A stretch of 64,000 bases of DNA from an uncultured Clostridia bacterium (GCA_947581805.1 CANPVM010000002.1:140290-204289), one strand, 5' to 3'; counted from the stretch's first letter, positions 2,010-33,031 are shown. A program made the numbers and translations. Notes: a model not told the origin generated them from the sequence alone.

Positions 2010-3552
2010 TTAAAATTGTTTATAAATAAATGCTGTTGCATCATAACCTGCACCATAACAACCAAATATGATAATAGTGAAAATTAGTGTATATAATACT
2101 CCCCATCGAAATACAATATTTTGCTCTAATAATTTTTCTCTTACGTCTCTTCTTCTTGCTAAGAATTGCATCATAAATAAGATTATTAATGAAACAAATA
2201 ATACTGCTAAATCATAAAAATCTAATCCAATATTACTTATCATATTTAATAACATTTCTTTATTCATTAATGATTGTATGTTAATTGTAAACATATTTTT
2301 TATAATTTCTATAGCATTTGATACACTATTTGCTCTAAAGAAAATCATAGCAAAAGAAAATAACAAATAAGTTCTTATTACTTGATATAACTTATAACTA
2401 AATACTTCTGTATTAATTCCTAATTTATTATTAATCTTTTTTGATATTGGTCCGTAATATATCTTCTAAAAACATAAATATAAATTGCAATATTCCTGAA
2501 CCAATAATAAATTTATATTCTCCACCATGCCAAGCACCAATTAATATCCACATAATTAGCATTGATAGATACATTGGTATTTTCTTTGCTGCTTTTTTAC
2601 CAAATTTTGCTTTACATTTTTTTGCTAGGTTCTGCATAGCATCTGATTTTAATAATGGATAGAATATATAATCTTTAAGCCATGCCCCTAATGTAATATG
2701 CCAGTTTCTCCATAGTTCTGTAATAGTTCTTGAGAAAAATGGAAGATTAAAGTTTTCTGGCAATTTGATACCTATAATTTCAGATATTCCCATAATTACA
2801 TCAATAGAACCAGAAAAATTAGTATATAGTTGCATTACAAACGCCATGGCAGCTGCAATAATAAAGATAAATGTAAACATTTCTAAATTTCCATAAATAG
2901 CATCTACAAACATACCTAATCTTTGAGAAATTACTAATATTTTAAATAGTCCCCATAGAATTCTAATTAGTCCTCTACACAATGTATCATAATGTAGTTT
3001 GTGTCCTTCATATAATTGTTTTCCTACACTATCATAGCGAATAAATGGTCCTGATGTTAAAATTGGGAAATATGACATAAATAAAGCACACTTAAATATA
3101 TTTTTTTCTGCTTTGCAAGTACCTCGATAAACATCTACTAAGTAGCCTATCATAATTAATGAATAGTAACTAATACCTATTAATGAATTTCGTTGTACAA
3201 AGGTAAATTGATAATCTATATTTAACAAGTTATTGATATGATTTGCTGTTGCTAAAAATAAATTGGTATATTTTAAGTAAATTAGTTGTGCTAGTATAAT
3301 AATAATACCTAAAATCAAGATTTTTTTACCTTGTTTTGTATTTGTATGATTTTCTATTTTTCTTCCTAATATGTAACTTGGAACAAGAATAACTAAGGCT
3401 TGTATTACTGTACTGATATGTAGGTTATCATAAAATAAAAAGATAATACTTGAAATTAATAAGACTACCCATTGAAATTTTTTAGGCATTATAAAATAAA
3501 TGCATAATGTTATAACTACATAACATAAAAAAAATAATGATGTTAAATTCAT
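2010..3552 (-). CDS. MBOAT family membrane O-acyltransferase (DltB/AlgI-like) #2; needs a +1 shift at the in-frame CGG at 2452-2454
   Basis: The 373-aa ORF is multi-TM with MBOAT features and ends ...DILRTNIKKD* just after an in-frame CGG. Skipping the C gives ...DILGPISKK...YLLFSFAMIFFRANSV..., which runs into the 118-aa ORF carrying the conserved C-terminal FFRA motif. MBOAT#1 has the equivalent VIFRADN. Confidence 0.65.
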
Positions 3553-3553
3553 A

Positions 3554-3802
3554 TTATTTTCCCTCTATTCTGTCTAAAATGATATCTACCATTTCACCAA
3601 CGTTTTTCATTGTTGTTACTTCATTCATGTTGAATTTCATTCCAAATTCTTGCTCTACTGCTACTACTAGATTGATGTGTTCTAGGCTATCCCAATCTTC
3701 AATATCGTTTGATGTTGTTTCTTCTGTTACTACAATACTTTCATCATCAAATATATCTCTAAATACCTTATTTAATCTTTCAAATACTTCTTCTCTTTTC
3801 AT
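3554..3802 (-). CDS. Acyl/peptidyl carrier protein (DltC-like)
   Basis: The 82-aa protein has the phosphopantetheine-attachment motif DWDSLEH and sits immediately downstream of the FkbH-like gene. Confidence 0.7.
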   Translation of the reverse strand: MKREEVFERLNKVFRDIFDDESIVVTEETTSNDIEDWDSLEHINLVVAVEQEFGMKFNMNEVTTMKNVGEMVDIILDRIEGK

Positions 3803-8153: not shown

Positions 8154-9443
8154 CTATTCGAACCTCCACACTTTTGCCAAATTGCTTGTTTCATCTCCTT
8201 CAGCATAATTTTCTACTGCTCCTCCATTATACATAATTAGTACTAAGCTAGGATTAAAACTTTTTATATAACTTTTTAAACTCCCATTATAATATCTTAA
8301 ATCGATTATAGATAAGTACTCATTTTCTAATGCTAAAAAAGGTGATACCACATCAGCAAAACTATCTTTTATCATCAATATTTTTTTATTATTTTTTACT
8401 AGCTCATTATGTATTTCAATCAATGGTTTTTCTCCATAAGCATACGCCCCGTATTGGCTAGTAGAATAATAATTACCATATTCAATACGTGACCAATCAA
8501 TAAGAGTATTTTCAAAGCTATCTGTTTTATCAATACCTTTATTTAAGATTTTAATGTTTAATCTTGTATTAAATTTTGGTGTTATTAAGTCAAAATCTTC
8601 TGGCTCAGCATTTTTCAAGCTTACATATCTTCCATCATATCCCAAATACATTTTAGGATATATTTTAATATTATACTTATCAGGATTAATATTTTCTATA
8701 TTTAAATTTAAATTGTATGTATTATTTAAATATTTAGAAATTTCTCCAGCTACCCATAGTCCTGTTTCCGGTAACCAATGGTGATCCGTTTTATAAAACA
8801 ATGATAAATTGTCTAATTTTTTTTGTTTTATAATTTTCCTTAAATCAAGATAATCTATTTTTCCATTAATTTGCTTTAGAAATTTATTTACATTTTTATT
8901 TGTATAATCTCTATATATATTTGATGGCATCGGTTGATTTTCTGATATTTTATATGGTGCTTGTACATATAATAATGTTATATCATTTTCTTTTAGATAT
9001 TTATTAAATTCTATTATGTTATTAGCACATTTATCAACATCTTCTTCATTTTGTATTTGTGATAAATACCCATTTCCTAAATCAACCCTATCAAGTTCAT
9101 TCGAATTAGATACTAATTTATATAACATTAAATCTTTATAGATATATGATAATTCTATAAACTTTTCATATCCTAATAATTGTTCAGATGTATGTGCTTC
9201 AATTTTAGTTTTAATATCTTCTATAATTGTTTCATATTTTTTTAAGATGCTTGCTTTTTTTACAGTTTGTACTTCATCTGCTTCAAATGGAAATAACTTT
9301 TCATAATCTACATTTATACTTGAATTATCTTGCTCTTTTTTTATTATTTTTTTTATGATTGTAATACCTGATAATATCATCATTGCAATCAATACTAAAA
9401 TTATAAAAAATGTAGTAAAATTCTCTATTTTATTCTGTTTCAT
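8154..9443 (-). CDS. DHHW family protein (AlgJ/PatB/DltD-like extracytoplasmic O-acyltransferase partner)
   Basis: The 429-aa protein has an N-terminal TM and the diagnostic motif KTDHHWLPETG. It lies immediately downstream of an MBOAT gene. Confidence 0.65.
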   Translation of the reverse strand: MKQNKIENFTTFFIILVLIAMMILSGITIIKKIIKKEQDNSSINVDYEKLFPFEADEVQTVKKASILKKYETIIEDIKTKIEAHTSEQLLGYEKFIELSYIYKDLMLYKLVSNSNELDRVDLGNGYLSQIQNEEDVDKCANNIIEFNKYLKENDITLLYVQAPYKISENQPMPSNIYRDYTNKNVNKFLKQINGKIDYLDLRKIIKQKKLDNLSLFYKTDHHWLPETGLWVAGEISKYLNNTYNLNLNIENINPDKYNIKIYPKMYLGYDGRYVSLKNAEPEDFDLITPKFNTRLNIKILNKGIDKTDSFENTLIDWSRIEYGNYYSTSQYGAYAYGEKPLIEIHNELVKNNKKILMIKDSFADVVSPFLALENEYLSIIDLRYYNGSLKSYIKSFNPSLVLIMYNGGAVENYAEGDETSNLAKVWRFE

Positions 9444-9460
9444 AATTATAGTCTCCCTTT

Positions 9461-17624: not shown

Positions 17625-20270
17625 TTAATAACTATCTCTAAAGTAAATGCTATCTAATAATTCTTTATTGATTTCTTTTTTTACATTTTTAAAACAATAT
17701 TTATATATTTTATCTCCTAGTGCTGGTACAGTGTATATAGAACCATCTTTAGTTATAACTCCTCCTGCACATTTTGCTTTTATATTTTCCTTTACCTTAT
17801 ATATTTCTTTTACTTCATCTTTTTCAATATCATATTCGTAAACGATATTACCATCTCCGGGGATTCCATAGATTTTTCCATTTATGCCTAATTTGGTTCC
17901 ATAGCAGCCTGATACGCCTATTTCTGTATGAATCATTTGACTTTTTTTATTTTTTACATCTATTTTTAATATGCCTTTTTCCGTTTTTGAAAAACCATAT
18001 ATATTTCCATCTTTTCCTATTACTGCATCAAATACCATTGTGTTAATTTTTTCTCCTATAAAAGAAACTTTTTCAGTTTTTGTATTTAATACCATTACTC
18101 TTCTATTTCTTTCTGGAAAAAAGTAAATATTATTATTAGGATGTAATATTCCTGAATTATATCTATATTTTACATTAAGCCACTTAGGAGATATATATAT
18201 TTTTTTTGCTATTTTATTCTTTACATCAATTTTAAGAATATGATTACAATTTCTTGGTGCTTGATATACAACTCCATTCTCTATTTGAACTCCACTATAA
18301 TGATGTTCTTGTTTATATTTTAATCCTAATTGAATTTCTTCAACTTTTTTAGTACTTGGATCTAAACATAGTATTGTATTTCTAGTTCTAGGAAGAGCAT
18401 AAATTTTTCCTAAATATTCAAAACCTCCTGTCCACCTATATTTTCCTTCTTTGCAATTAAATGGTATATAGTTATAAGTTTCATTTTTTATATCGTACAC
18501 TAGAAATTTATTAATTCCATTTGGTATAAAATAAATGTTGTCATTATATTCAACTGCTCCAACCCATTTAAAATCATTTTTACCATCATTTAATTGAATC
18601 TCTTCTATCTTTTCTATATATGCATTTTTGTTATTTTCAATTAGCTTTAAAAAATCTTTATTTATTTGAAATTTCTCATCACTTTTGTTCATTTTCTTTA
18701 ATTCTATTTTATCAGGTATAAAAGCTAATATCTTTGCTAATATATTTTCTACCATTTTCATTGATTCTTTACATTCTTTTTGATTTCTATAAAAAATATA
18801 TAACATAATATTGGGAACCGTTAAGCATAATATCATTCTTCCAATAAAACTAATATACGTATACTCTGTAAATAGTTTACTGCATAAATAACAAGTTATT
18901 AATGCAACAATTAAAGTAGCAAATAAATATTTTATATCTTTTAATAACCATTCTTTCATTTGTTTTTTATTAAAATAGTATTTAAATAATACTACAGTAA
19001 ATCCTACATCATATACGCATACTAGACTAATAATTGTAGAGATTATAATTCCTTTTAGTCCTATAAACTGTACTAATATAATATTGGTAGTTAAGTTTAC
19101 AATAGCAGCAATAAGTGGAACATATCTATTATACCACCACATTCCTAATGCTTCTTGATATACATCTAACATATCAAACCACTTATTTGTGAAGAAATAT
19201 ATTGCAAATAACAATACTATTTCATTACCTAGTAGCATTTTTTCTCCTACCCACAAATACATAAAGTTTTGGAATAAACATAATAGTGATATTGTACAAA
19301 ATGAGATAATCCATATATAAATAAATGTGAATTTTTTTAAATCATTAAAATTCTTTTCCTTTGTTTCTAAAATAATTGAATTTCCAACACTTGCTTTTAG
19401 TGAAGTTGATATAACTCCTAAAATTCCATATATTCCAGTAATTACATAATAATAATTTGAATATACTCCTAAAGTTTCCAAGCCTAAAAATGATGATATT
19501 ACTATAAAATCCACATTTCCTAATACCACTAATCCAATTTTCTTTAGTATCATTCCTTTTATTTGTTTTTTCAGTTCAATAACTTGATTTTCTTCAAGTT
19601 TTCCATCAATTTCTTTTATTTCAGGATATCTTTTATTTACAACCCAAGCGACAAATAAGTTATTGCATATTGTTGTTATAGGTAATGCAATTATGTATAA
19701 GTAATAATTTTTTGCTATTAGTAAAATTACTATTTGTAATAAATTTTTAGTAATTAAAACTACTGAACTAATTTTGCTAATCATATCTTCTCTTTGACTA
19801 GCTGCTAATAGTGAACTCTTATATGCAAATAGAAAGTACGTTAAGCATGTATTTACTAAATTAATTAGGTAAACTATATAAATGTTTATACCTGCTGGAT
19901 AATCTCCACTTATAAGGTTCTTTAAAAAAGGTAACATTATAAGTCCTATTGCAAAGATTATAATACCCATAATTCTGTAAACTTTTTTATAAAGATTTAA
20001 TAATACTCCTACTTTTTTAGTATCATTTTCAGCTATTGGCTTATACATACTAAATGTTATAGCATTAGAGAAACCTAACTCTGCTAAATTTAAAACTTGT
20101 AAAATTGAAACAAATAGGTCATTAAGACCTAAAAACTTGTTACCTAAAATATATATAAAAACTGTTCTAGTTATAAATGGAAATATAATATTTAAAACTC
20201 TCTGTAAAAATCCAAAGACAATATTTCTACTAGCATTTTTTGTTCTACTGTTTTCAATTAAATTCATCAC
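17625..20270 (-). CDS. Wzx-like polysaccharide flippase (MOP superfamily) fused to a C-terminal domain of about 390 aa built from roughly eight repeats of about 45 aa
   Basis: The N-terminal 500 aa or so are a typical multi-TM Wzx (...NASRNIVFGFLQRVLNIIFPFITRTVFIYILGNKFLGLNDLF...). The C-terminal part repeats an [ILV]Y-x-[IF]P-x(5-8)-[IV]L-x-[ILV]D-like motif, for example NDNIYFIPNGINKFLVYDIKNETY and GKIYALPRTRNTILCLDPSTKKV. Confidence 0.6.
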   Translation of the reverse strand: MMNLIENSRTKNASRNIVFGFLQRVLNIIFPFITRTVFIYILGNKFLGLNDLFVSILQVLNLAELGFSNAITFSMYKPIAENDTKKVGVLLNLYKKVYRIMGIIIFAIGLIMLPFLKNLISGDYPAGINIYIVYLINLVNTCLTYFLFAYKSSLLAASQREDMISKISSVVLITKNLLQIVILLIAKNYYLYIIALPITTICNNLFVAWVVNKRYPEIKEIDGKLEENQVIELKKQIKGMILKKIGLVVLGNVDFIVISSFLGLETLGVYSNYYYVITGIYGILGVISTSLKASVGNSIILETKEKNFNDLKKFTFIYIWIISFCTISLLCLFQNFMYLWVGEKMLLGNEIVLLFAIYFFTNKWFDMLDVYQEALGMWWYNRYVPLIAAIVNLTTNIILVQFIGLKGIIISTIISLVCVYDVGFTVVLFKYYFNKKQMKEWLLKDIKYLFATLIVALITCYLCSKLFTEYTYISFIGRMILCLTVPNIMLYIFYRNQKECKESMKMVENILAKILAFIPDKIELKKMNKSDEKFQINKDFLKLIENNKNAYIEKIEEIQLNDGKNDFKWVGAVEYNDNIYFIPNGINKFLVYDIKNETYNYIPFNCKEGKYRWTGGFEYLGKIYALPRTRNTILCLDPSTKKVEEIQLGLKYKQEHHYSGVQIENGVVYQAPRNCNHILKIDVKNKIAKKIYISPKWLNVKYRYNSGILHPNNNIYFFPERNRRVMVLNTKTEKVSFIGEKINTMVFDAVIGKDGNIYGFSKTEKGILKIDVKNKKSQMIHTEIGVSGCYGTKLGINGKIYGIPGDGNIVYEYDIEKDEVKEIYKVKENIKAKCAGGVITKDGSIYTVPALGDKIYKYCFKNVKKEINKELLDSIYFRDSY

Positions 20271-20894
20271 TTAACTCCATTTTATATCACTTTTTATTAC
20301 TTTGGCTGGAACACCAGCGACTATAGAATTTGGTGGTACATCTTTAGTTACAATTGCTCCCGCAGCAACAATTGCTCCATCACCTATGTGTACTCCCTTC
20401 ATTATAATTGCTCTTGTTCCAATCCATACATGATTTCCTATTACTACTTCTTTTTTTTCTTCGTGTTTTCCATCTTCTATTTTATGCGCATCTGTATCTC
20501 TAATAATAACATCCCTTGCAATAGCCACATTTTCACCTATTTTAATATCTTTAGCACATACAATTTGAACAAATCCATTCAAATATCCGCTTCCTATCGA
20601 TAAATTTGCATTATCAAAAACTCTAATATCACTACCACAACCTACTGAAAAATCATTGTTTATATTTATGCACGAATTTTTACCCATACTAAATCTTGTT
20701 TCTTGTTTTGATTTTGTATTTTCTTTAGTTCCTATTGTTAATCTTCCTTTGCAATTTATTTTTGATGTTTTATCAATCATAACTCTAGTAAATTTTTTAC
20801 ATACAATTAACTTCTTTTTCTTTATATTTATTTCAGTATTTTTTCTACAATTTACTTTTATAGTATTTAATATTTGAATGTCTGCCATTTTCAT
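20271..20894 (-). CDS. Hexapeptide-repeat acetyltransferase (WbbJ/Maa-like)
   Basis: Left-handed beta-helix hexapeptide repeats (...[52 protein letters not shown]). Confidence 0.7.
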
Positions 20895-20905
20895 TATTTT
20901 CTCTC

Positions 20906-22105
20906 CTAACTTTTTCCGATAACTTTTTTTACCCTTGCTTTAATCTTTTTTAATGTTCGATTTGTTTTAATTTTTATCTTAACTTTCTTCTTTAAGTTTG
21001 GTTCTGGAAAAAAATTTTTGCTCAATTCATTATATGACATTTTATCAATATTCTTAAAAACATTTTTTCTTGATTCTGTTATTTCAACTGAATTATTCAT
21101 ACACATATTTCCATTGAAAGCATCATTGGATGTAACTTCTACATATTCTACATTATCTTTAATCAATTCAAATAGTTTTTTCCCTTTATTTGAATTAATT
21201 AGAATCATAGATGTTCCTTTGTCACAATCTAATTTTGGATCTATTTTTTCAATACCCCAAAAATCCGCTAATGTTATATCAGCCACTCTTGGCAATCCTT
21301 TAAATTTACACTCATAGCAAGAAGGTCTCATAAATGCATTGTATTGTAAATATCCAATCCAATAAGAATCTAAATATCTAGTTCCTATATAATTTTTTCC
21401 ATTTTCAAAATCAACTTTAATTGAAAAATTATGCCATCCATAAGTTTTATTTTTAAATTTGATTTTTTTTATTTTAGAGTGATATTTTTCTTGTAAATTT
21501 AGAATATATTTTTTAAAAATTTTAGGTGAATTAACCCCTCTACAAATAAAATCACAAGTATATAAATTTTCATATTCTTTATTTGATAAGTAATTATATA
21601 ATCCAGCTATTTGACATGGACATCCACAAACTAAAACTTTTTCGCCTTGTTCCAATAATTTTTTTATCCTTTTAAAATTATCATTCATATCACTTTGTAA
21701 GTATTTAGAACTTCTTAAATTATCAATATCTTCTATATTAGAAGATACATAATGTTCTACTAACCACTCTTTATTATATATTGCCCCACAAACATATCCA
21801 TTTTGTTTATATATTGCCCCTGCAAGTTCTGAAAAAATTCCTCCTGAAGTACTATCTAATCTAACATGGTTATTCTTACTCCACGCTGCTATTACTGTTG
21901 GTTTCTTATAATTATCATTTATTTTGGTATTATTGTTAATTGGACAAACTTTATTGCAAAGACCACATTGTATGCATTTATTCATATCAACTTTTGGATA
22001 TTTAAAGCCTTCATTATCTTCTACCATTTTTATTGCTTTGACCGGACATATATTGTAACAAGCACTACAAGCCATGCAATTTTTCTTATCTTCTATTTTA
22101 ATCAT
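20906..22105 (-). CDS. Coenzyme F420 hydrogenase/dehydrogenase beta-subunit-like FeS protein (a frequent partner of pyruvyl transferases)
   Basis: It has N-terminal 2x[4Fe-4S] ferredoxin motifs ([24 protein letters not shown]) followed by a FrhB-like domain. Confidence 0.55.
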
Positions 22106-23192: not shown

Positions 23193-25076
23193 TTACCCCT
23201 TTTTTATTTTTTGTATTAATTTCCAATATAACATTCCAAAATAGTAATTTATATTTTTTGCATAAATTATTTTATTTAAAAAGCCTATTTTCCATATACT
23301 CTTTCTAAAATCTTTTATAAAAATTTTTGGATGAACAAAATAATATGATATTTTTTTTGCATTTGCTACGTCAAGGATTTCATAGTCAAGAAACTTTAAA
23401 TTTCCAAATGTTTCTAATATTTTTTTATCAGGTTTATCTAAACTTAATGTAAAATTATTACTACAAACTTCTGAATTAAATTCAATGTACTCTTTGCAAC
23501 TGGCATTATTAATGTCTTTTACAAAATCAATGGCACCTTCTTGTATATTAGTTGATAATTCTAGTTCATGAGAATTTTTATATTCATAATCGTAAAATTC
23601 TACATTTTCTTTTGAATTATTAAAACATTTTACAGATCCATGTCTTGCTAAGAATAAAAATTCAAATATTCCATTATTTCTATTTATGTTTGAGCGTATT
23701 TCTTTTTTATAATCTTTATCAAATAAAAAGCCTTTCATTCTTGATGTATTTTGATTATATATTAAACCTACATAATATCCATATATATCATTATCTAAGA
23801 TTCTTGATAATGACATTTGCATATTTCCGCCCCATCCTATATCAACTACAGCTAGTTTTCCTCTAAAATCAACACTGTCTAAATATTTTTTCATACATGA
23901 ATATTCTTTTTTAGAATTATTAATAATTCTATCAAATATTGCTTTCATAAAATCAATAAAATCTTCATTTGTTTTCATAAATTCTATACTATATTCTTTT
24001 TCTAAGTCTAATTTATATTGCTTTATTTCCTTAGATAAATCAATGTCATCTAATCCAATTCTTTTTATGAACTTATCTAAACGTATTTTTTTTACTCCAT
24101 ACATTGAAGTATATATTTCATTTATTTCTTTGCATTGCCATAATGAAGGTACTATAGTTGACCTTCTTGAAGCATAAAGATAATAACTTTTTATATTAGT
24201 ATTATTTATCACATCAAAAACTTTCTTTATTATGTATCCATCTCTAGCCATAAAATAAACTTTATTTATTTTTTCTTTTTGTAAATTATCTATTAACCAC
24301 TTAGTAAATCCATACAAAATTGGTCCAAAACATACATATCCCCAATCATATAATTTTTTCTCTTTATAGATTAAATTGTTTTTTATAAAACTACTTAATA
24401 CATTTGAACTTATATTGTTTTTTATTGTCGCATTGTAATAACAATTATTATCATTTTTAATATAATGAATTGCTTCTATACCTATGGATTTTGGATTTAG
24501 GTAATCACTTTTATAACTATCACCAATATGAATTATTTCATTCTTGTTTATCTTTAACTCTTCTAAAACTTTAAAAAATAAATTTCCACTTGATTTTGTA
24601 ACTTTAAAATCAGAGGATAAAAAAAGCTTATAATATTTTATATTGTTTTTATCTAAAATTCTTTCAATTACAGATTTATCTAAATACATATCTGATGTTA
24701 AAATTACTTTTTTTCCGTTTTTATTGCAATATTCTAAAATATCAATCATTTCATTATTTATTTGACAAATATTTAATTCTGCTTCTATTTCAATCTTTTT
24801 TAATCTATCGCATACTTCTGTAGGATATTCTTTTTCTAAGGATGAATATATATCATTAAATTCTATTTCTTCACTCTCAGATGATTTTCTAGCTTTTATT
24901 TCACTATTCACTCTTTTAGTTAAAAAATCAAAAATTTTATCTTTAAACTTACTATTATATTTTTTTTGTACAATAGAATATACATCATGTGGATGAATAC
25001 AATTTCTTTTTATTAGTGTATCAAAAATATCAAAAGAAATATATTCATATTCTTTTAGCTTACCAATATCTAGCAT
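23193..25076 (-). CDS. Large HAD-superfamily hydrolase-like protein, associated with polysaccharide loci
   Basis: The 627-aa protein has an N-terminal HAD motif I (ISFDIFDTLIKRN). The rest has no family I recognise. Confidence 0.4.
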   Translation of the reverse strand: MLDIGKLKEYEYISFDIFDTLIKRNCIHPHDVYSIVQKKYNSKFKDKIFDFLTKRVNSEIKARKSSESEEIEFNDIYSSLEKEYPTEVCDRLKKIEIEAELNICQINNEMIDILEYCNKNGKKVILTSDMYLDKSVIERILDKNNIKYYKLFLSSDFKVTKSSGNLFFKVLEELKINKNEIIHIGDSYKSDYLNPKSIGIEAIHYIKNDNNCYYNATIKNNISSNVLSSFIKNNLIYKEKKLYDWGYVCFGPILYGFTKWLIDNLQKEKINKVYFMARDGYIIKKVFDVINNTNIKSYYLYASRRSTIVPSLWQCKEINEIYTSMYGVKKIRLDKFIKRIGLDDIDLSKEIKQYKLDLEKEYSIEFMKTNEDFIDFMKAIFDRIINNSKKEYSCMKKYLDSVDFRGKLAVVDIGWGGNMQMSLSRILDNDIYGYYVGLIYNQNTSRMKGFLFDKDYKKEIRSNINRNNGIFEFLFLARHGSVKCFNNSKENVEFYDYEYKNSHELELSTNIQEGAIDFVKDINNASCKEYIEFNSEVCSNNFTLSLDKPDKKILETFGNLKFLDYEILDVANAKKISYYFVHPKIFIKDFRKSIWKIGFLNKIIYAKNINYYFGMLYWKLIQKIKKG

Positions 25077-25094
25077 ATAACTCCTCCTCTAATG

Positions 25095-26864
25095 CTAATT
25101 CTTCTTTAAAATATTGATTATCTTCTTAGCTTTATCTTGGCCTATTGTTCCTTTTATAATATTTTTACTTTTATTTACAATTTCATCTTTTAGTGTTCGT
25201 GGACTACTAAAATCATAAAAATCAAAAATTGTTTGAGCATCATCTTTCATCTCAGTAAATACTTCAAAAAATACTGGCTTTTCATCTTGTATTTTCATGA
25301 ATTTTTCCACATTAGCCTCAAATGATTCTTTATCATTTGCTGATAAATATGTAAAATTATTTTCTTCTACCCATCCTTTTGCTTTTGTATTATGTCTTGC
25401 TGATGTATGTAGCTCTCCTGATTTATTTAAACATGTCTTATTATAGTAAAACTCAGAACCTCCATGATTATTTATCATTAAAATATGTACATTCTTTTTT
25501 ATGCTATTTATTCTTAATGCATTCATATCATAAAAGAAAGCTAAATCCCCTATTACAAGAAAACTCTCCTTGTTACTAACTGTTGCTTGACCTAAGAATG
25601 TAGATAAAGGTCCATCAATTCCATAAGTGCCTATATTTGCATATGTTTTTATATTGTTATTTAATTTAAAATAATTAGCTATTCTAATACTATCATTAAC
25701 ACTTAAATGTAAAATTGAATTCGATGGCATTTTTTGAACAACATTTTTTATTGCATAAATATGTGAAAATCTAAATTCAGGCATTTCTACTGAATCTGAG
25801 TATTTTTTAAAATTATTATAATATTCCATACTATTCTTATTCTTTGAATTTTTATTAAAATATTCAAAGAAATATTCTGGTTGACATTCAAATATTGTTT
25901 TTAAACTCTTGAACGTATCAACTACTTGTCCATCTTCTTCTATACTCCAATGTTCAAATTTTCCATTTAATTTTCTAAATTGCTCTTTTATTGAAGAGAA
26001 AATTTGTCCCCCAAAAGTTATCAATACATCTGGTAGTAGCTCCTTAACTATATTACTATTTGAATATTTAGGATCAAAACATGTTATAGTATTTATTCCT
26101 TCTTCTATCTGGACATTTGACATATGATCTACTACTATAGTTGCATTATAGTTTTTAAAGAAATCTTTTATTTCTTTTTCTAATTTTGGAGTAACGTTAC
26201 TTTTTTGTCCACATACAACTAGGACTTTTTTGCAATTTTGTAATTTTTTTACTTTTTCATCCCATTTTGATTTATCTTCGCACAAACTAATTCTTTCTAT
26301 TTTTTTTACTTTTGGAAGTTCTTTTACATTAAAGGACATATTATAATCATAGGTTGGAACATTTATATGAATTGGCCCTTTTCTACCATTATGATTTAAT
26401 TCCAAAAATGCTTCATTTATTAGTCTTTGGCAATAGATTTCATCATCTACTGTATTTATAATTGGTAGATTAACTGATTTTTGTACATGCCTATCAAACA
26501 TACCTACTTGATTTATCATTTGATCTTCCCATTGACCCAGCATTCTAAAATCTCTGTCACTTGTTAATACTATTATTGGAACTCTTTGATAAAATGCTTC
26601 TGCAACAGGTGGCCAATAATTACATGATGCTGTAGAAGCTGTACAAGATATTAAAACTGGTTCATTTAATTCTTGTGCTAAGCCCAATGCAAAATATCCC
26701 GCACTCCTTTCATCTACAACGGAATAACATTTAAAGAAATCATCTTCTTCAACAGAATGAACAAAAGGTACATTTCTTGATCCTGCCGACAGTACACAAT
26801 GTTTAATTCCATACTCTTTTAATAATGCTATTAAAATTTGATAACTTTTTATTTCTGTATACAT
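25095..26864 (-). CDS. MenD-family thiamine-diphosphate enzyme (SEPHCHC-synthase-like paralog) embedded in the glycan locus
   Basis: Blocks CVLSAGSRNVPFV, DERSAGYFALGLAQ, VPIIVLTSDRDFRMLGQWEDQMINQ and GPIHINVPTYD align with the MenD motifs PGSRSTPL, DERSAGFFALGLAK, LTADRP...QAINQ and GPVHVNVP. A ThDP GD..FYDMN-type motif (IGDLAFFYDMNAL) is present. Start taken as the ATG at 26864 with AAGGAG 7 nt upstream. Confidence 0.6.
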   Translation of the reverse strand: MYTEIKSYQILIALLKEYGIKHCVLSAGSRNVPFVHSVEEDDFFKCYSVVDERSAGYFALGLAQELNEPVLISCTASTASCNYWPPVAEAFYQRVPIIVLTSDRDFRMLGQWEDQMINQVGMFDRHVQKSVNLPIINTVDDEIYCQRLINEAFLELNHNGRKGPIHINVPTYDYNMSFNVKELPKVKKIERISLCEDKSKWDEKVKKLQNCKKVLVVCGQKSNVTPKLEKEIKDFFKNYNATIVVDHMSNVQIEEGINTITCFDPKYSNSNIVKELLPDVLITFGGQIFSSIKEQFRKLNGKFEHWSIEEDGQVVDTFKSLKTIFECQPEYFFEYFNKNSKNKNSMEYYNNFKKYSDSVEMPEFRFSHIYAIKNVVQKMPSNSILHLSVNDSIRIANYFKLNNNIKTYANIGTYGIDGPLSTFLGQATVSNKESFLVIGDLAFFYDMNALRINSIKKNVHILMINNHGGSEFYYNKTCLNKSGELHTSARHNTKAKGWVEENNFTYLSANDKESFEANVEKFMKIQDEKPVFFEVFTEMKDDAQTIFDFYDFSSPRTLKDEIVNKSKNIIKGTIGQDKAKKIINILKKN

Positions 26865-26878
26865 ATATATTCTCCTTT

Positions 26879-27757
26879 TTATATATTTATATGATTTCCC
26901 GCATTGCAATGTAAGATTTCACCTGAAATACATTTACTTGCATCGCTCAATAAAAATAAAGTAACTTCTGCTATTTCCTCTGGTAAAAAACATCTACCTG
27001 AACTTTCATCTGTTGCCAAATTATTGCCATTTGTTCCAGCATAATCCTTTGTCATATCAGATATTGTTACACCAGGTGCTATACCATTTACTCTAATTCC
27101 ACTTTTGTAATATTTTTTTGCCAATGCCTGTATTAAAGAATTTAGGGATGCTTTTGTTAATCTATATGGTAAATCAGATGCACATGAACCGCCTTGCGAA
27201 CTAATTATTATTAATTCAGATTCTCCCTCATTTTCTTTATTCTCTATTTTTTTCTCAATAAATGCTTTTGATAAAAAATATGTTCCCCTAAGATTAATAT
27301 CAAATTGTTTATCAAAACTTTCTGTTGTTACGTTTTCGATACTTCCCTCATATAAGTTTATTCCTGCATTATTGATAAGAGCATTTATCACACCATTTTT
27401 AAATTTTTTGCAACATTGCTTTATAAACAAATTAGCATTATCTACATCACTTATATCAAATACTATATATGAACAATTTTTACCAAGTTCCTTACATGCT
27501 TTAATAAGTTTATTTTCATCTCTACCCGAAATTATAACATTAGCTCCTTCTTGAATACATTTTTTTGCCATATAATAGCCTAATCCTCGTCCTCCACCTG
27601 TAATTACAATATTTTTATTTTTTAATATTTCTCCATAATTAACTTGGGAGATTTTAACTTCTACATAATTTTCAGGTTGACTGGCTAAAATAAATTTTGC
27701 AATTTTTTTACAGAACTTTCTAACCCCCCCCCATTTATTTTGCTCCTTTCTATACAT
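26879..27757 (-). CDS. SDR-family oxidoreductase #3 with a G9 tract in its 5' region, overlapping the 3' end of pyruvyl transferase #2
   Basis: It has the motif NIVITGGGRGLGYYMAKK. Its N-terminal extension is homologous to SDR #1 and #2 (KISQVNYGEIL versus KINQIHSEKML). Codons W-G-G-V are tgg ggg ggg gtt. Confidence 0.65.
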   Translation of the reverse strand: MYRKEQNKWGGVRKFCKKIAKFILASQPENYVEVKISQVNYGEILKNKNIVITGGGRGLGYYMAKKCIQEGANVIISGRDENKLIKACKELGKNCSYIVFDISDVDNANLFIKQCCKKFKNGVINALINNAGINLYEGSIENVTTESFDKQFDINLRGTYFLSKAFIEKKIENKENEGESELIIISSQGGSCASDLPYRLTKASLNSLIQALAKKYYKSGIRVNGIAPGVTISDMTKDYAGTNGNNLATDESSGRCFLPEEIAEVTLFLLSDASKCISGEILHCNAGNHINI

Positions 27758-28863
27758 TCTTTGATAGTTTCTTCTATAAAGTTAATAGATTTTTTTCTTT
27801 CTTCATCTAATATTTTATTAACCTTTTCATATTCTATTTCCTTGTCAATAATAGTTAAATCATTAAAATTATTTACTCTTCTTTCTTCTAAGTTTGTTAA
27901 CTCTAATATACTTTGTAATCTTGTACTAAATTTTTGCGGAAAAATACATACAAATTTTTTATTAAAATTTATTGCAAAACCTGTAGCATGAAAAGAATCA
28001 GTAACAATATATGCTGCTTTATCAAAATAAGATAAAAACTCATTTATTGTAGGACAAAATACAAGTTTACCGTATTTAAAAAATTGATAGTTTACATTAG
28101 AAATTCTTAATACTGGCATTTTTTTCTTTTTTGATAGTTTTTTGACATATTCATCAAATTTTGGATTGTTGCTATTTAATTGGTAAACCAAAATATATGG
28201 TTTCTTTATTTTGACTTCTTCACTTATATCTTTCCATGCTTTTTTATTTAATAATAATGTTGGATCTAATACTTGGATAGCATTGTCTATTCCCATTTTT
28301 TTTAATATTTTTAATGCAGAATTTTCTCTAACAGAAATCCTTTTATATTTTATTAACATTTTTTTTAGTTCTTCTTCTTCTTTTTTCTCAAGTTCTATTT
28401 TTCCAAAACTTGAAGCATAAGCAAATCTAGGTACATCATTCTCTAAAAAATCTAGAAATAAAGCTCTATCAATTTCTTCATTCCACTCACTATTCCATAC
28501 TTGATCGCTTCCTGTACAATATATATCTGCTTTTGGCGTATTTTTTTTTAATTCTTCATTTGAATAATATTTTTTTGTTAAATGGACGTATTTACCTAAA
28601 AACTTATGAAAAACTTCTATTTGTTTGTTTATAGATGTAGTTAAAAATAATTTTCCAATAAATTTTGTGATAATATTTCTAGAGAAAATAGATGAGCTAT
28701 CAATTCTTCTTTTTACCATAGTTTCTTCTACATCTACTTTTCTATAATAATTTATTATTTCAACTTCATTTCCTAGTTTTTCCAACGTTTTTTGTGTTGC
28801 ATATGTTTGCAAAGCAGACCCATAATTTTTTACATTATGTAAAGTAATAACGTCTATTTTCAT
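27685..28863 (-). CDS. Polysaccharide pyruvyl transferase family protein #2
   Basis: The 392-aa protein has the GSDQVWNSEW block and is homologous to 13679-14761. Confidence 0.6.
   Translation of the reverse strand: MKIDVITLHNVKNYGSALQTYATQKTLEKLGNEVEIINYYRKVDVEETMVKRRIDSSSIFSRNIITKFIGKLFLTTSINKQIEVFHKFLGKYVHLTKKYYSNEELKKNTPKADIYCTGSDQVWNSEWNEEIDRALFLDFLENDVPRFAYASSFGKIELEKKEEEELKKMLIKYKRISVRENSALKILKKMGIDNAIQVLDPTLLLNKKAWKDISEEVKIKKPYILVYQLNSNNPKFDEYVKKLSKKKKMPVLRISNVNYQFFKYGKLVFCPTINEFLSYFDKAAYIVTDSFHATGFAINFNKKFVCIFPQKFSTRLQSILELTNLEERRVNNFNDLTIIDKEIEYEKVNKILDEERKKSINFIEETIKECIERSKINGGGLESSVKKLQNLF
27724..27732. repeat. Homopolymeric C9 (G9 coding) tract in the overlap between SDR #3 and pyruvyl transferase #2
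   Basis: Read directly from the sequence. It is in-frame in both genes: NGGGLES in the transferase tail and KWGGVRK in the SDR. Confidence 0.9.
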
Positions 28864-28917: not shown

Positions 28918-29964
28918 TTAAAATATAACACTTTGATATGGCAAAATGCCATTGAATGATACTACATTCATTATATAATAAATAAATATTACTGTATAAA
29001 ATATAAGACTTTCTAATCTTTTTTTTCTAAAATCTTGTATTTCATAGTAGCTAGCTAATATAAAAGTTATAAAAATTAAAAATTGTAAAGCAACTCTATT
29101 AAATAGCCAATTTTTTATTGAAAATATATTAATAATTATTCCTATCGTTGCTATTTTAAAATATAAATTATTATTGCCATTATAATCTTCAATTTTTTTC
29201 ATATTCGTAATCATGATAAATGTATATATTACTATATAAAATAATACATTAAGATATGTTCCAACTCCTGATTTATACTCATTAGCTGTATCATAATACA
29301 TTTGGTATGCATCCATTCCCCCTACTATTTTTAAATACAGAAAATCATATAATATAAAGCCAATTAAACTTATTATTAATACATATAACGGTCTTATTTT
29401 TAGTTTTGGCTTTAAATATAAGAAAGAAAATACTAATATACTCAACAATGATATTGAATGTATCGAGAAACCTATTAAATAAAAGATTAAGCATTTAATT
29501 TTTTTCTTTCTTTGTAAATAATTTAATCCATAAATAACAAACATTGTAGCTATACTTTGCCTAAATCCATTAAGAGAAAACGCATAAAATCCAAGTGCTA
29601 TATATATTAACATTACTAATCCAGGTCTTTCTGAATGTTTTTTCATAAAACTATATATTAAAAAATTAGTACAAAAAGAAACTATAAATATCCAAGCTTG
29701 ATAATTTAAGTTTAATTTTGTATTAAAAAAATATGTTAATAATGTATATCCTATACCTGTTCTACTTTGTAAAGCATTCTCTATACTTGTACCCAATTGG
29801 TAACTCGATTCATATAATATATAATCAGATCCTATTCCATATCTTAATCCTGAGAAAAGAATAATTATACCTAAAAATAATATATCATAAACATCCCACT
29901 TTTTCTTTTGTATCTTAAAAGATAACAAAAATATTATTATGTAAAATATAATATATACTATCAT
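28918..29964 (-). CDS. Wzy/EpsG-like oligosaccharide repeat-unit polymerase
   Basis: The 348-aa protein is polytopic (about 10-11 TM) and sits between GT and pyruvyl transferase genes. Confidence 0.45.
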   Translation of the reverse strand: MIVYIIFYIIIFLLSFKIQKKKWDVYDILFLGIIILFSGLRYGIGSDYILYESSYQLGTSIENALQSRTGIGYTLLTYFFNTKLNLNYQAWIFIVSFCTNFLIYSFMKKHSERPGLVMLIYIALGFYAFSLNGFRQSIATMFVIYGLNYLQRKKKIKCLIFYLIGFSIHSISLLSILVFSFLYLKPKLKIRPLYVLIISLIGFILYDFLYLKIVGGMDAYQMYYDTANEYKSGVGTYLNVLFYIVIYTFIMITNMKKIEDYNGNNNLYFKIATIGIIINIFSIKNWLFNRVALQFLIFITFILASYYEIQDFRKKRLESLIFYTVIFIYYIMNVVSFNGILPYQSVIF

Positions 29965-32320: not shown

Positions 32321-33031
32321 CTATACAGCTCCTCTAAAAACTCTAAAAAATGTTTTTAAAAGTATTTTTAAGTCTAACCATAAACTTCTATCTTTAATAT
32401 ATTTAATATCTATTTCAAGTCTTTCATTAAAATCAACATCACTTCTACCACTTACTTGCCATAGGCCTGTAAGTCCTGGCTTAACTGTTATAATTTGTTG
32501 ATATTTGCTTCCCATATCTTCTTTTTCTCTATAAAGGTATGGACGTGGTCCAACCAAACTCATTTCCCCTTTTAATACATTTATTAATTGAGGTAACTCA
32601 TCTAAACTTGTTTTTCTTAAAAAATTACCTAGTTTTGTAATTCTAGGGTCATCCTTTAATTTTTTATATTTATGATATTCCTCTCTTGCTTCTTCATTCT
32701 CATTTAAATATTCCCATAGTTTTTCATCTGCATGCATTACCATAGAACGGTATTTATATAATTTAAATTCTTTTCCGTCTTTTCCTATACGTAATTGGTC
32801 AAAAAATAATGGTCCTTTATTTTCTTTTGATATTTTATTTACTATGTATAAAATGGCTGTAACTGGAATTAGAATGACTACCCCAACTAAGCCTCCTATG
32901 ATATCTACAAATCTTTTTATGGTTTTATATATAATTTTTTTATTGCTAACTATTTCTTCTTGTTTTACTTGAGTTTCTAATATAACATCATCTAGTAAAA
33001 TGGCATTATCATGTTCTAAATTTGTACCCAT
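32321..33031 (-). CDS. Undecaprenyl-phosphate sugar phosphotransferase (bacterial sugar transferase, WbaP/CpsE C-terminal-domain type). Likely first gene of the glycan operon
   Basis: The 236-aa protein has one TM plus the conserved ...LDELPQLINVLKGEMSLVGPRP... catalytic region. Confidence 0.75.
   Translation of the reverse strand: MGTNLEHDNAILLDDVILETQVKQEEIVSNKKIIYKTIKRFVDIIGGLVGVVILIPVTAILYIVNKISKENKGPLFFDQLRIGKDGKEFKLYKYRSMVMHADEKLWEYLNENEEAREEYHKYKKLKDDPRITKLGNFLRKTSLDELPQLINVLKGEMSLVGPRPYLYREKEDMGSKYQQIITVKPGLTGLWQVSGRSDVDFNERLEIDIKYIKDRSLWLDLKILLKTFFRVFRGAV

Follow-up and report, generated by a model that had tools for sequence, protein, structure and literature searches.

A 64,000-nucleotide stretch of DNA from an uncultured Clostridia bacterium (GCA_947581805.1, CANPVM010000002.1:140290-204289; hereafter 'the window') carries on its minus strand, at positions 17625..20270, a single open reading frame (ORF) in which a predicted polysaccharide flippase is fused to a predicted seven-bladed beta-propeller. 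We find that this fused flippase-propeller ORF is a genuine single gene and that its architecture is shared by at least nine distinct proteins. Our best explanation, which we advance tentatively and with somewhat less than even confidence, is that the propeller recognises or processes the glycan close to the membrane, where it is tethered to the flippase, and that decoration of the glycan is thereby coupled to its export. According to this proposal, the flippase would handle a lipid-linked polysaccharide repeat unit, and an amphipathic linker helix and then a cytoplasmic propeller would follow on the same polypeptide; in free-standing relatives of the propeller, a basic-hydrophobic N-terminal helix may hold the protein at the membrane surface. 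The propeller would be the glycan-recognising, possibly catalytic, part of the decoration machinery encoded by its gene cassette, and would act on the undecaprenyl-diphosphate-linked unit at the inner face of the membrane through an Arg / Glu-His-His-Tyr / Arg pocket that lies on a single face of blades 2-3. Loss of the stop codon between two abutting genes would have tethered the propeller permanently to transmembrane helix 14 (TM14) of the flippase in the window lineage, coupling decoration and export spatially. The steps of this proposal that we infer are that the propeller binds or converts a ligand, that it works on the unit while this is lipid-linked, and that decoration is coupled to export.

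The ORF list, inspection of ribosome-binding sites (RBSs) and database matches establish the gene structure. Positions 17625..20270 form one uninterrupted frame of 881 residues from a GTG codon to a stop codon at 17625-17627, with no stop codon or frameshift concealing a gene boundary, and the frame is collinear with the separate flippase and propeller genes of relatives. The GTG directly follows the TAA stop codon of the upstream hexapeptide-transferase gene; an ATG at 20267, one codon past the GTG, has a GGAG RBS at a suitable distance, inside the end of that upstream gene. The likely start is this ATG, which would give an 880-residue product identical to a database protein, P0001 (P and L numbers here denote homologous proteins and loci). 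The G+C content of the ORF, ~24%, equals that of the surrounding locus. No RBS-like motif precedes the internal ATG codons, and on this ground production of a separate propeller from an internal translation start was rejected.

The same architecture recurs in independent assemblies. Seven further fused proteins (P0002-P0008, 766-892 residues) align end to end with the window protein at 45-73% identity, and a ninth, of 898 residues, is encoded in a metagenome-assembled genome (MAG; locus L005), making at least nine distinct proteins (window/P0001, P0002-P0008 and L005) at 45-100% identity. P0003 is encoded without any difference on 19 contigs, which come from separate JGI, Logan and ENA metagenome samples. 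An alignment of eight fusion proteins has more than 150 invariant columns spread across both halves, and within the fused clade of the window both the length and the sequence of the linker are kept. An assembly or sequencing error that merged two genes might be suspected because the two genes abut in the same frame in close relatives, an arrangement that a one-base stop-codon error would turn into an apparent fusion; the nine distinct proteins, the 19 contigs and the conserved linker nevertheless leave this a negligible prospect. We conclude that the fusion is a genuine single gene, assembly or sequencing error being excluded for the architecture by the nine distinct fused proteins and by the recurrence of P0003 on 19 contigs, and the sequence comparisons indicate that the fusion is under selection. 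The initial annotation of this DNA, which described a Wzx-type flippase and a repeat domain in one ORF, is in this respect upheld.

Residues 1-494 (18789..20270, minus strand) constitute the flippase domain, with AlphaFold2 (AF2) modelling, Foldseek, hydropathy and homologues pointing to a 14-TM protein of the MOP (multidrug/oligosaccharidyl-lipid/polysaccharide) superfamily, Polysacc_synt-type, with both termini inside. The N-terminal half of the window protein itself has no Pfam match even at E<=10, and NCBIfam WZX_like is matched only at E=0.35. Its homologues number more than 3000, mostly of ~510 residues, and PF01943 (Polysacc_synt) is present in the precomputed annotation of most among the 120 homologues listed (~510 residues, 42-60% identity), as well as in that of fused orthologues at 51-73% identity; a homologue at 46% identity, from A. 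thermocellus, bears the name 'oligosaccharide flippase family protein'. AF2 modelling of the full length (pLDDT 94.8, pTM 0.85) gave 14 long helices up to residue 494. In Foldseek searches the flippase model matches the lipid II flippase MurJ (6nc6/6nc8, TMt 0.72-0.75 over ~505-510 columns, with 0.75 for 6nc6) and the MATE transporters 6fhz and 9r1g, the identity to MurJ in the structural alignment being 16-17%. Because homologues carry PF01943, the model has 14 helices, and its fold matches MurJ and MATE proteins, we assign the N-terminal half, on the strength of the model, as a MOP-superfamily flippase of the 14-TM MurJ/TacF-like kind and not of the 12-TM Wzx type. It resembles MurJ and TacF in having two six-helix lobes plus TM13-14, but those proteins have no soluble domain, whereas the window protein bears a folded propeller of ~330 residues after TM14. 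Wzx is a 12-TM type, for which structure 9G9N is cited (PMC13385700); the window flippase resembles Wzx (PF01943) through its close PF01943-bearing homologues and through its setting in a Wzx/Wzy-type locus that also encodes a polymerase and a priming transferase, and differs from it in having 14 helices rather than 12, no Pfam match of its own, and a C-terminal soluble domain. The initial designation of the N-terminal 500 residues as canonical Wzx thus stands as to the MOP flippase and not as to the helix number or a direct Pfam match. The gene lies in a complete Wzx/Wzy-type polysaccharide locus (~12.6-33.0 kb), the 64-kb window has no second MOP flippase, and the substrate is presumably a polyprenyl-diphosphate-linked glycan.

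The soluble C-terminal part, residues 495-881 (~387 residues), consists of a linker, a propeller and a short tail. The linker (residues 495-550; 18621..18788, minus strand) has, by DSSP of the AF2 model and by junction alignment, an amphipathic charged helix at 498-525 and a short helix at 538-546, and is the counterpart of the C-terminal tail of unfused flippases plus the basic-hydrophobic N-terminal helix of free-standing propellers, as seen in the L001 and L003 pairs. The propeller (residues 551-861; 17688..18620, minus strand) is built of tandem units of ~45 residues with the motif I/V-Y-x-x-P/S ... I/V-L-x-I/L-D. Seven units are in register, with anchors at residues 579, 623, 668, 715, 757, 800 and 845, a spacing of 42-47 residues, and a mean pairwise unit score of ~45 vs. 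21.6 +/- 5.0 for shuffled units. An eight-repeat reading was rejected, the eighth match ('IYISP' at 691) falling inside unit 3 and out of register. The C-terminal tail (residues 862-881; 17628..17687, minus strand) ends in Y-F-x-D-x-Y-COOH with a nearly invariant Tyr. Modelled alone with 107 homologues, the propeller gives pLDDT 96.7 and pTM 0.93, and DSSP of the model finds 27 strands of at least 3 residues in seven groups, with blades at ~569-603, 613-647, 657-692, 702-742, 757-794, 800-825 and 834-861; to judge by the order of the strands, strand 551-559 at the N-terminus probably completes the last blade and thereby the ring. The best PDB fold matches are seven-bladed propellers, and the matches include Lp49 and BT1954. 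The initial annotation, which proposed a repeat domain of ~390 residues, possibly beta-propeller-like, with ~45-residue units, was thus correct in the size, unit length and fold of the domain and one too high in its count of eight units.

In sequence, the propeller belongs with Pfam DUF6923 (PF21959), whose gathering threshold of 27 bits is exceeded both by the whole window protein (29.5 bits) and by its C-terminal part (34.1 bits); among the 108 family members compared here, 67 match DUF6923, 13 match DUF5074, and 29 weakly match Kelch_6. Membership in Kelch was rejected (Kelch_FKB95, 20.6-28.2 bits vs. a cut-off of 70), as was membership in WD40, for which the window protein has no match. 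Searches of PDB sequences with phmmer, using the whole protein, and with the family profiles gave no informative match, the best, an unrelated propeller, having E 0.019. When 1.84 billion representatives were searched exhaustively with a hidden Markov model (HMM), 877 family members passed E<=1e-30 and 2970 passed E<=1e-10, the 877 being counted in a library clustered at 50% identity. We conclude, with the model as our guide, that the C-terminal domain is an ordered seven-bladed beta-propeller of the DUF6923 type. The window subfamily differs from the Pfam entry, a repeat of unknown function, in being a compact single domain with its own Glu-His-His-Tyr/Arg site and C-terminal Tyr and in being linked to polysaccharide cassettes.

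In relatives the propeller is usually a separate protein of ~340-390 residues (typically ~370), and the genes around it are those around the fusion ORF. In the window, on the minus strand, the fusion ORF is preceded by a hexapeptide-repeat acyltransferase gene (Pfam Hexapep; 20271..20894), whose stop codon abuts the start of the fusion ORF, and by a gene for an FrhB/FdhB-like protein with a 2x[4Fe-4S] ferredoxin domain (Pfam FrhB_FdhB_C/N and Fer4 families; 20906..22105), and is accompanied by two tandem classical short-chain dehydrogenase/reductase (SDR) paralogues (Pfam adh_short; 15650..16483 and 14798..15619) and a polysaccharide pyruvyl transferase (Pfam PS_pyruv_trans; 13679..14761). Loci L001-L003 have the order pyruvyl transferase, FrhB-like, Hexapep, flippase, propeller, SDR, which is that of the window except that in the window the flippase and the propeller are one ORF; the two are adjacent separate genes in L001-L003, L007, L013, L016, L025 and L028. 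In L001 the TAA of the flippase gene is followed immediately, and in the same frame, by the GTG of the propeller gene, and the products of 512 and 371 residues together approximate the fused 881, with a collinear junction alignment; in L013 the two genes overlap (ATGA). Because the L001 stop and start codons lie in one frame and the junction is collinear, a single substitution could toggle the fused and unfused states.

The composition of the cassette varies among loci. Neighbours were counted in 27 species-representative genome loci, from Clostridium, Clostridia, Lachnospiraceae, Oscillospiraceae, Bacilli, Collinsella, Riflebacteria and Thermoguttaceae. Of the 27, 21 have an SDR gene, in most cases next to the propeller gene, and 17 have an FrhB-like gene; the pyruvyl transferase co-occurs with the cassette in most loci, and the Hexapep gene is syntenic in L001-L007, L013, L016, L018, L020, L028, L031-34 and L040. 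In cultured, Gram-negative Geovibrio thiophilus (CP035108.1, L039) the order is pyruvyl transferase, FrhB-like, citrate-lyase-ligase-like, propeller, ORF of unknown function, flippase. A Lachnospiraceae-type layout has a distant propeller paralogue, SDR, propeller, radical S-adenosylmethionine (radical-SAM) enzyme, citrate-lyase-ligase-like enzyme, a second radical-SAM enzyme and an FrhB-like protein. The distant paralogue (382-408 residues, E 1e-7 to 1e-13 against the family HMM, no Pfam match) is encoded one or two genes upstream of the main propeller in seven loci of Lachnospiraceae and Clostridia (L008, L010, L012, L014, L015, L019 and L021; at ~3.9-6.2 kb in each), all without a flippase nearby, and the three annotated in more detail (L008, L010 and L021) also encode radical-SAM enzymes and a citrate-lyase-ligase-like adenylating enzyme. 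Duplicated SDR genes stand next to the propeller gene in L004, L005 and L025 as well, and each of the window SDR paralogues (14798-16483) has an unusual N-terminal extension of ~40 residues. The closest free-standing relative, P0121 (L004, positions 2387-3574 of CAZASP010000012.1, an uncultured Clostridium sp. MAG), is 74% identical and starts right after the Hexapep stop codon; it retains the end of TM14 and the linker ('MELVVLFYKNQKECKG...') and has no flippase body, and looks like the fusion gene minus its transporter part or like a MAG assembly artefact.

Fused and unfused states have interchanged repeatedly. In a neighbour-joining tree of flippase domains (100 bootstrap replicates) the fused proteins fall into three separate clades: the window with P0002-P0005 (clade A, bootstrap 100/100); P0006 and P0008/L005 together with the unfused P0019 (clade B, bootstrap 100/100); and P0007, whose cassette has a different order (fusion, SDR, Hexapep, FrhB). 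All fusions together, or clades A and B together, were recovered in 0/100 bootstraps. The tree indicates at least three changes between fused and unfused states, each of which may be a fusion or a fission. The initial remark that the architecture was not recognised needs qualification: it is rare, but it occurs beyond this genome, and its propeller was already catalogued as DUF6923. Complete propellers are also joined to products of other cassette genes: in P0260 to an FrhB-like protein, in P0262 to FrhB-like and citrate-lyase-ligase-like domains, and in P0335 to two SDR domains. The separate adjacent genes of relatives, the collinear fusion and its recurrence correspond to the pattern of a Rosetta-stone fusion, and this fusion to the product of a neighbouring gene suggests, without proving, a physical coupling of sugar decoration and export.

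A further group of proteins places the propeller on what appear to be phage structures. In P0279, P0281, P0294 and P0298 a complete C-terminal propeller follows a tail-fibre-like N-terminus; the propellers of P0279 and P0281 are 37-39% identical to the window domain and keep its R/HHY/R site, the N-terminus of P0281 matches Parabacteroides phage proteins, and P0298 has weak PHROG matches to virion-structural and tail-fibre families. A viral nature of these four proteins is moderately supported. A pattern scan of viral contigs gave one weak locus, and tblastn against annotated phages was then used; it showed a distant propeller relative directly downstream of the tape-measure gene in Vibrio siphophages (78 Vibrio phage genomes; for example Vibrio phage 14E30.2, L036 4953-6731), which would be the usual position of distal-tail or receptor-binding proteins. 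These relatives have in common with the window protein the same propeller and, in P0279 and P0281, the same conserved residues, and differ from it as extracellular virion parts; they suggest that phages use the propeller fold for recognition or cleavage of host glycans.

The side of the membrane on which the propeller lies was assessed from topology. K/R-rich loops at the N-terminus and after even-numbered helices give a positive-inside pattern; past residue 494 no 19-residue window reaches the hydropathy of 1.4 that we took as the threshold for TM segments, the maximum for residues 520-881 being 0.78; and the MurJ-type topology has N-terminus and C-terminus inside (PMC13385700). Because there are 14 TM helices, positive-inside loops and no later hydrophobic segment, and because the MurJ-type fold is N-in/C-in, the propeller is predicted to be cytoplasmic, as the initial annotation had it. 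Free-standing homologues agree with this location, 104 of 107 having neither a signal peptide nor a TM anchor, and the propeller is fused elsewhere to iron-sulfur (Fe-S)/flavin and NAD(P) enzymes. Proximity to the membrane is recurrent, being provided by the basic-hydrophobic N-terminal helix in most free-standing forms, by a TM anchor in three, and by fusion to TM14 in the window.

The three anchored proteins are a point on the other side. P0203, P0205 and P0206 have a K-rich N-terminus and then a genuine TM helix, and by the positive-inside rule their propellers would be expected outside the cell. Together with these signal-anchor-like N-termini, the relatives on phage tail fibres, which are extracellular, and the many distant DUF6923/DUF5074 propellers that are surface proteins (including PDB matches Lp49 and BT1954) would accord with a propeller outside the cell, for instance a lectin or processing enzyme, whose target is the glycan once it has been flipped or polymerised. 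We consider such a location very improbable for the window protein: its 14 TM helices and MurJ-like N-in/C-in topology leave no extra hydrophobic segment with which to re-cross the membrane, 104 of 107 free-standing homologues have no export signal, and the fusions to Fe-S/flavin and NAD(P) enzymes require the cytoplasm. A TM-anchored propeller gene (L040 8001-9161) stands in the usual cassette, with pyruvyl transferase, flippase, Hexapep, FrhB, propeller and Wzz.

The propeller has a nearly invariant polar site. Its core is E655-H656-H657-Y658 (18297..18308, minus strand), and the remaining residues are R628, R673, Y652, Y704, H710 and K833. Conservation over the 108 family members is 100% for R628 and Y658, 99% for H656 and H657, 97% for Y652, 94% for R673 and Y704, 89% for E655, 88% for K833 and 85% for H710; the C-terminal Tyr, Y881, is conserved at 92%, a Tyr is C-terminal in 98 of 107 free-standing homologues, and in the alignment of eight fusion proteins the D and Y at the end never vary. 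Strand order would place the site residues close to the axis and on a single face, in the D-A and B-C loops of blades 2-3. The site is kept in free-standing, flippase-fused and FrhB-fused members and in P0279 and P0281, and is lost in more distant members linked to Laminin-G.

Beta-propellers are classic interaction hubs, and the domain could accordingly be a pure protein-protein scaffold, with no ligand of its own, that gathers pyruvyl transferase, FrhB-like protein, SDR and acyltransferase at the flippase. Three types of fusion partner (flippase, FrhB-like and SDR) are as expected of a hub, and a pTM of 0.85 for the full-length model is consistent with a fixed orientation of the propeller to the transporter. 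The conserved site, however, is a compact, asymmetric charged and aromatic cluster on blades 2-3 that, together with the C-terminal Tyr, is more typical of a small-ligand pocket, and the same cluster is present in tail-fibre-like proteins that lack those enzyme partners. We therefore regard a scaffold as improbable; the compact cluster would fit a ligand-binding or active site better than a general docking surface.

The main alternative to a propeller coupled to export is that it is a soluble biosynthetic enzyme (for example a lyase/eliminase or a sugar-modifying enzyme) that builds an unusual substituent together with the SDR and the FrhB-like reductase; its fusion to the flippase, brought about by loss of a stop codon between adjacent genes, would then be neutral and play no part in export. 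In favour of this, the invariant Glu-His-His-Tyr and Arg residues resemble those of a catalytic centre, no neighbours are as constant as the SDR and FrhB-like genes, both of which code for proteins joined to the propeller in other fusions, some cassettes that include radical-SAM and adenylating enzymes have no flippase nearby, and one base change suffices to convert the L001 arrangement into a fusion. Set against this are the absence of a detectable sequence relation to Vgb lyase or to any solved enzyme (best PDB profile match, an unrelated propeller with E 0.019), the at least three changes of the fused state, which has been kept down to 45% identity with both halves conserved, and the recurrent tethering to the membrane, which is unexpected for an enzyme acting on soluble nucleotide sugars. 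On balance we consider the soluble enzyme unlikely, while giving it more weight than any other alternative.

Vgb (virginiamycin B, or streptogramin B, lyase) is a cytoplasmic enzyme with its active site on one face of a propeller. The window propeller is only 13-16% identical to it in structural alignments (PDB 2z2n/2qc5), and the genomic contexts are entirely different. Sequence homology to Vgb lyases is not seen: when the PDB was searched with a profile built from the 108 members, no chain of Vgb came up at E<=10.

Besides the three anchored homologues, several observations weigh against a glycan-recognising propeller tethered to the flippase. The flippase gene is directly upstream of the propeller gene in 6 of the 27 loci (including the L005 fusion) and within 7 kb, not adjacent, in a further 2, so that SDR and FrhB-like genes are more constant partners of the propeller than the flippase is; some Lachnospiraceae-type loci with radical-SAM and adenylating enzymes have no flippase nearby. 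Conversely, A. thermocellus (L038) has a related flippase with pyruvyl transferase and FrhB-like genes and without a propeller, because of which the propeller is not a general flippase accessory. The fusion of abutting, translationally coupled genes could be selectively neutral; the PHROG matches of the closest phage-like proteins are weak; and the literature yielded no biochemical or genetic evidence for the propeller family. The initial suggestion that the domain could couple export to a partner protein or to acyl transfer fares accordingly: a partner fits the cassette and the independent fusions, while the specific link to acyl transfer is not supported, in that the hexapeptide acyltransferase is frequent and not universal, the most constant members being the SDR, the FrhB-like protein and the pyruvyl transferase. 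Separately, pyruvyl transferase, the FrhB/FdhB-like Fe-S protein and this flippase subfamily occur together even where there is no propeller, in A. thermocellus, which points to an undescribed role of FrhB-like proteins in pyruvate-related glycan decoration.

A more specific form of the tethered-propeller proposal, which is speculative and which we think unlikely, would make the propeller an external substrate reader or final processing enzyme docked where substrate enters the flippase from the cytoplasm. What it recognises would be the completed decoration (for example one derived from pyruvate) on the lipid-linked repeat unit, and it would also seed a complex at the membrane in which pyruvyl transferase, FrhB-like protein, SDR and acyltransferase come together, such that only fully decorated units would be exported, and phages would have captured the domain for tail fibres that bind or cut the glycan made by the cassette. 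There is a precedent for such a check in TacF, the teichoic-acid 'gatekeeper', a MOP flippase able to inspect how its substrate is decorated before exporting it (PMC13385700); TacF, however, reads phosphocholine inside its central cavity, whereas the window protein has a separate attached domain.

The flippase-propeller gives a known kind of transporter a new architecture, by way of a domain from an uncharacterised family already catalogued as DUF6923. A literature search found no paper on DUF6923, on a Wzx-type flippase with a soluble propeller domain, or on a cassette combining F420-hydrogenase-like and pyruvyl transferase proteins. How Wzx-type flippases select complete, correctly decorated units, and whether they form physical complexes with cytoplasmic assembly enzymes, are open questions, and the solved MOP flippases (MurJ, TacF and Wzx) are bare membrane proteins. 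A flippase with a cytoplasmic domain that is elsewhere a separate protein of the cassette, or is fused to redox enzymes of the cassette, is a natural pointer to such a complex, and with this architecture the coupling of decoration to export can be tested directly. Attention is also drawn to a large uncharacterised family tied to a widespread, undescribed glycan-decoration cassette of gut Clostridia, Lachnospiraceae, Collinsella and others.

The polysaccharide locus around the fusion ORF contains a Bac_transf priming transferase (32321..33031), an EpsG polymerase (28918..29964), glycosyltransferases of families GT1, GT2 and GT4, three SDRs, acyltransferases and two pyruvyl transferases, the second copy of the latter being at 27685..28863; it is flanked by VanZ, sortase, ArgRS, PFK and SpoIIIAH genes. 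This setting, with a GC content of 26% and nearest relatives in MAGs of Clostridium and Clostridia, is that expected of a member of the Clostridia. Within the locus, at 23193-26909 (minus strand), a 604-residue enzyme dependent on thiamine pyrophosphate adjoins a 627-residue protein with an N-terminal hydrolase domain of the haloacid dehalogenase type, a pair that hints at synthesis of an unusual keto-acid-derived or phosphonate-like substituent. Downstream of the locus, at 8154-10942 (minus strand), an MBOAT membrane O-acyltransferase adjoins an AlgX/DHHW-like SGNH protein; the two make up a predicted two-component extracytoplasmic O-acylation pair.

The 64-kb window has only three G/C homopolymers of at least 6 bases, at 15556-15563, 17235-17242 and 27724-27732 (8, 8 and 9 bases, with G on the coding strand), and base composition predicts ~0.02 runs of at least 8 bases vs. 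the three observed. All three G tracts are in glycan-decoration genes, namely the 5' part of an SDR gene, an acyltransferase-3 gene, and a position just past the RBS-preceded ATG of another SDR gene, and they look like sites of slipped-strand phase variation. The Acyl_transf_3 gene (16506-17569, minus strand) consists of two overlapping ORFs, 17213..17569 and 16506..17258, split exactly at the G8 tract, meaning that the gene as sequenced is currently frameshifted, whether as a phase-OFF state, a pseudogene or a sequencing error.

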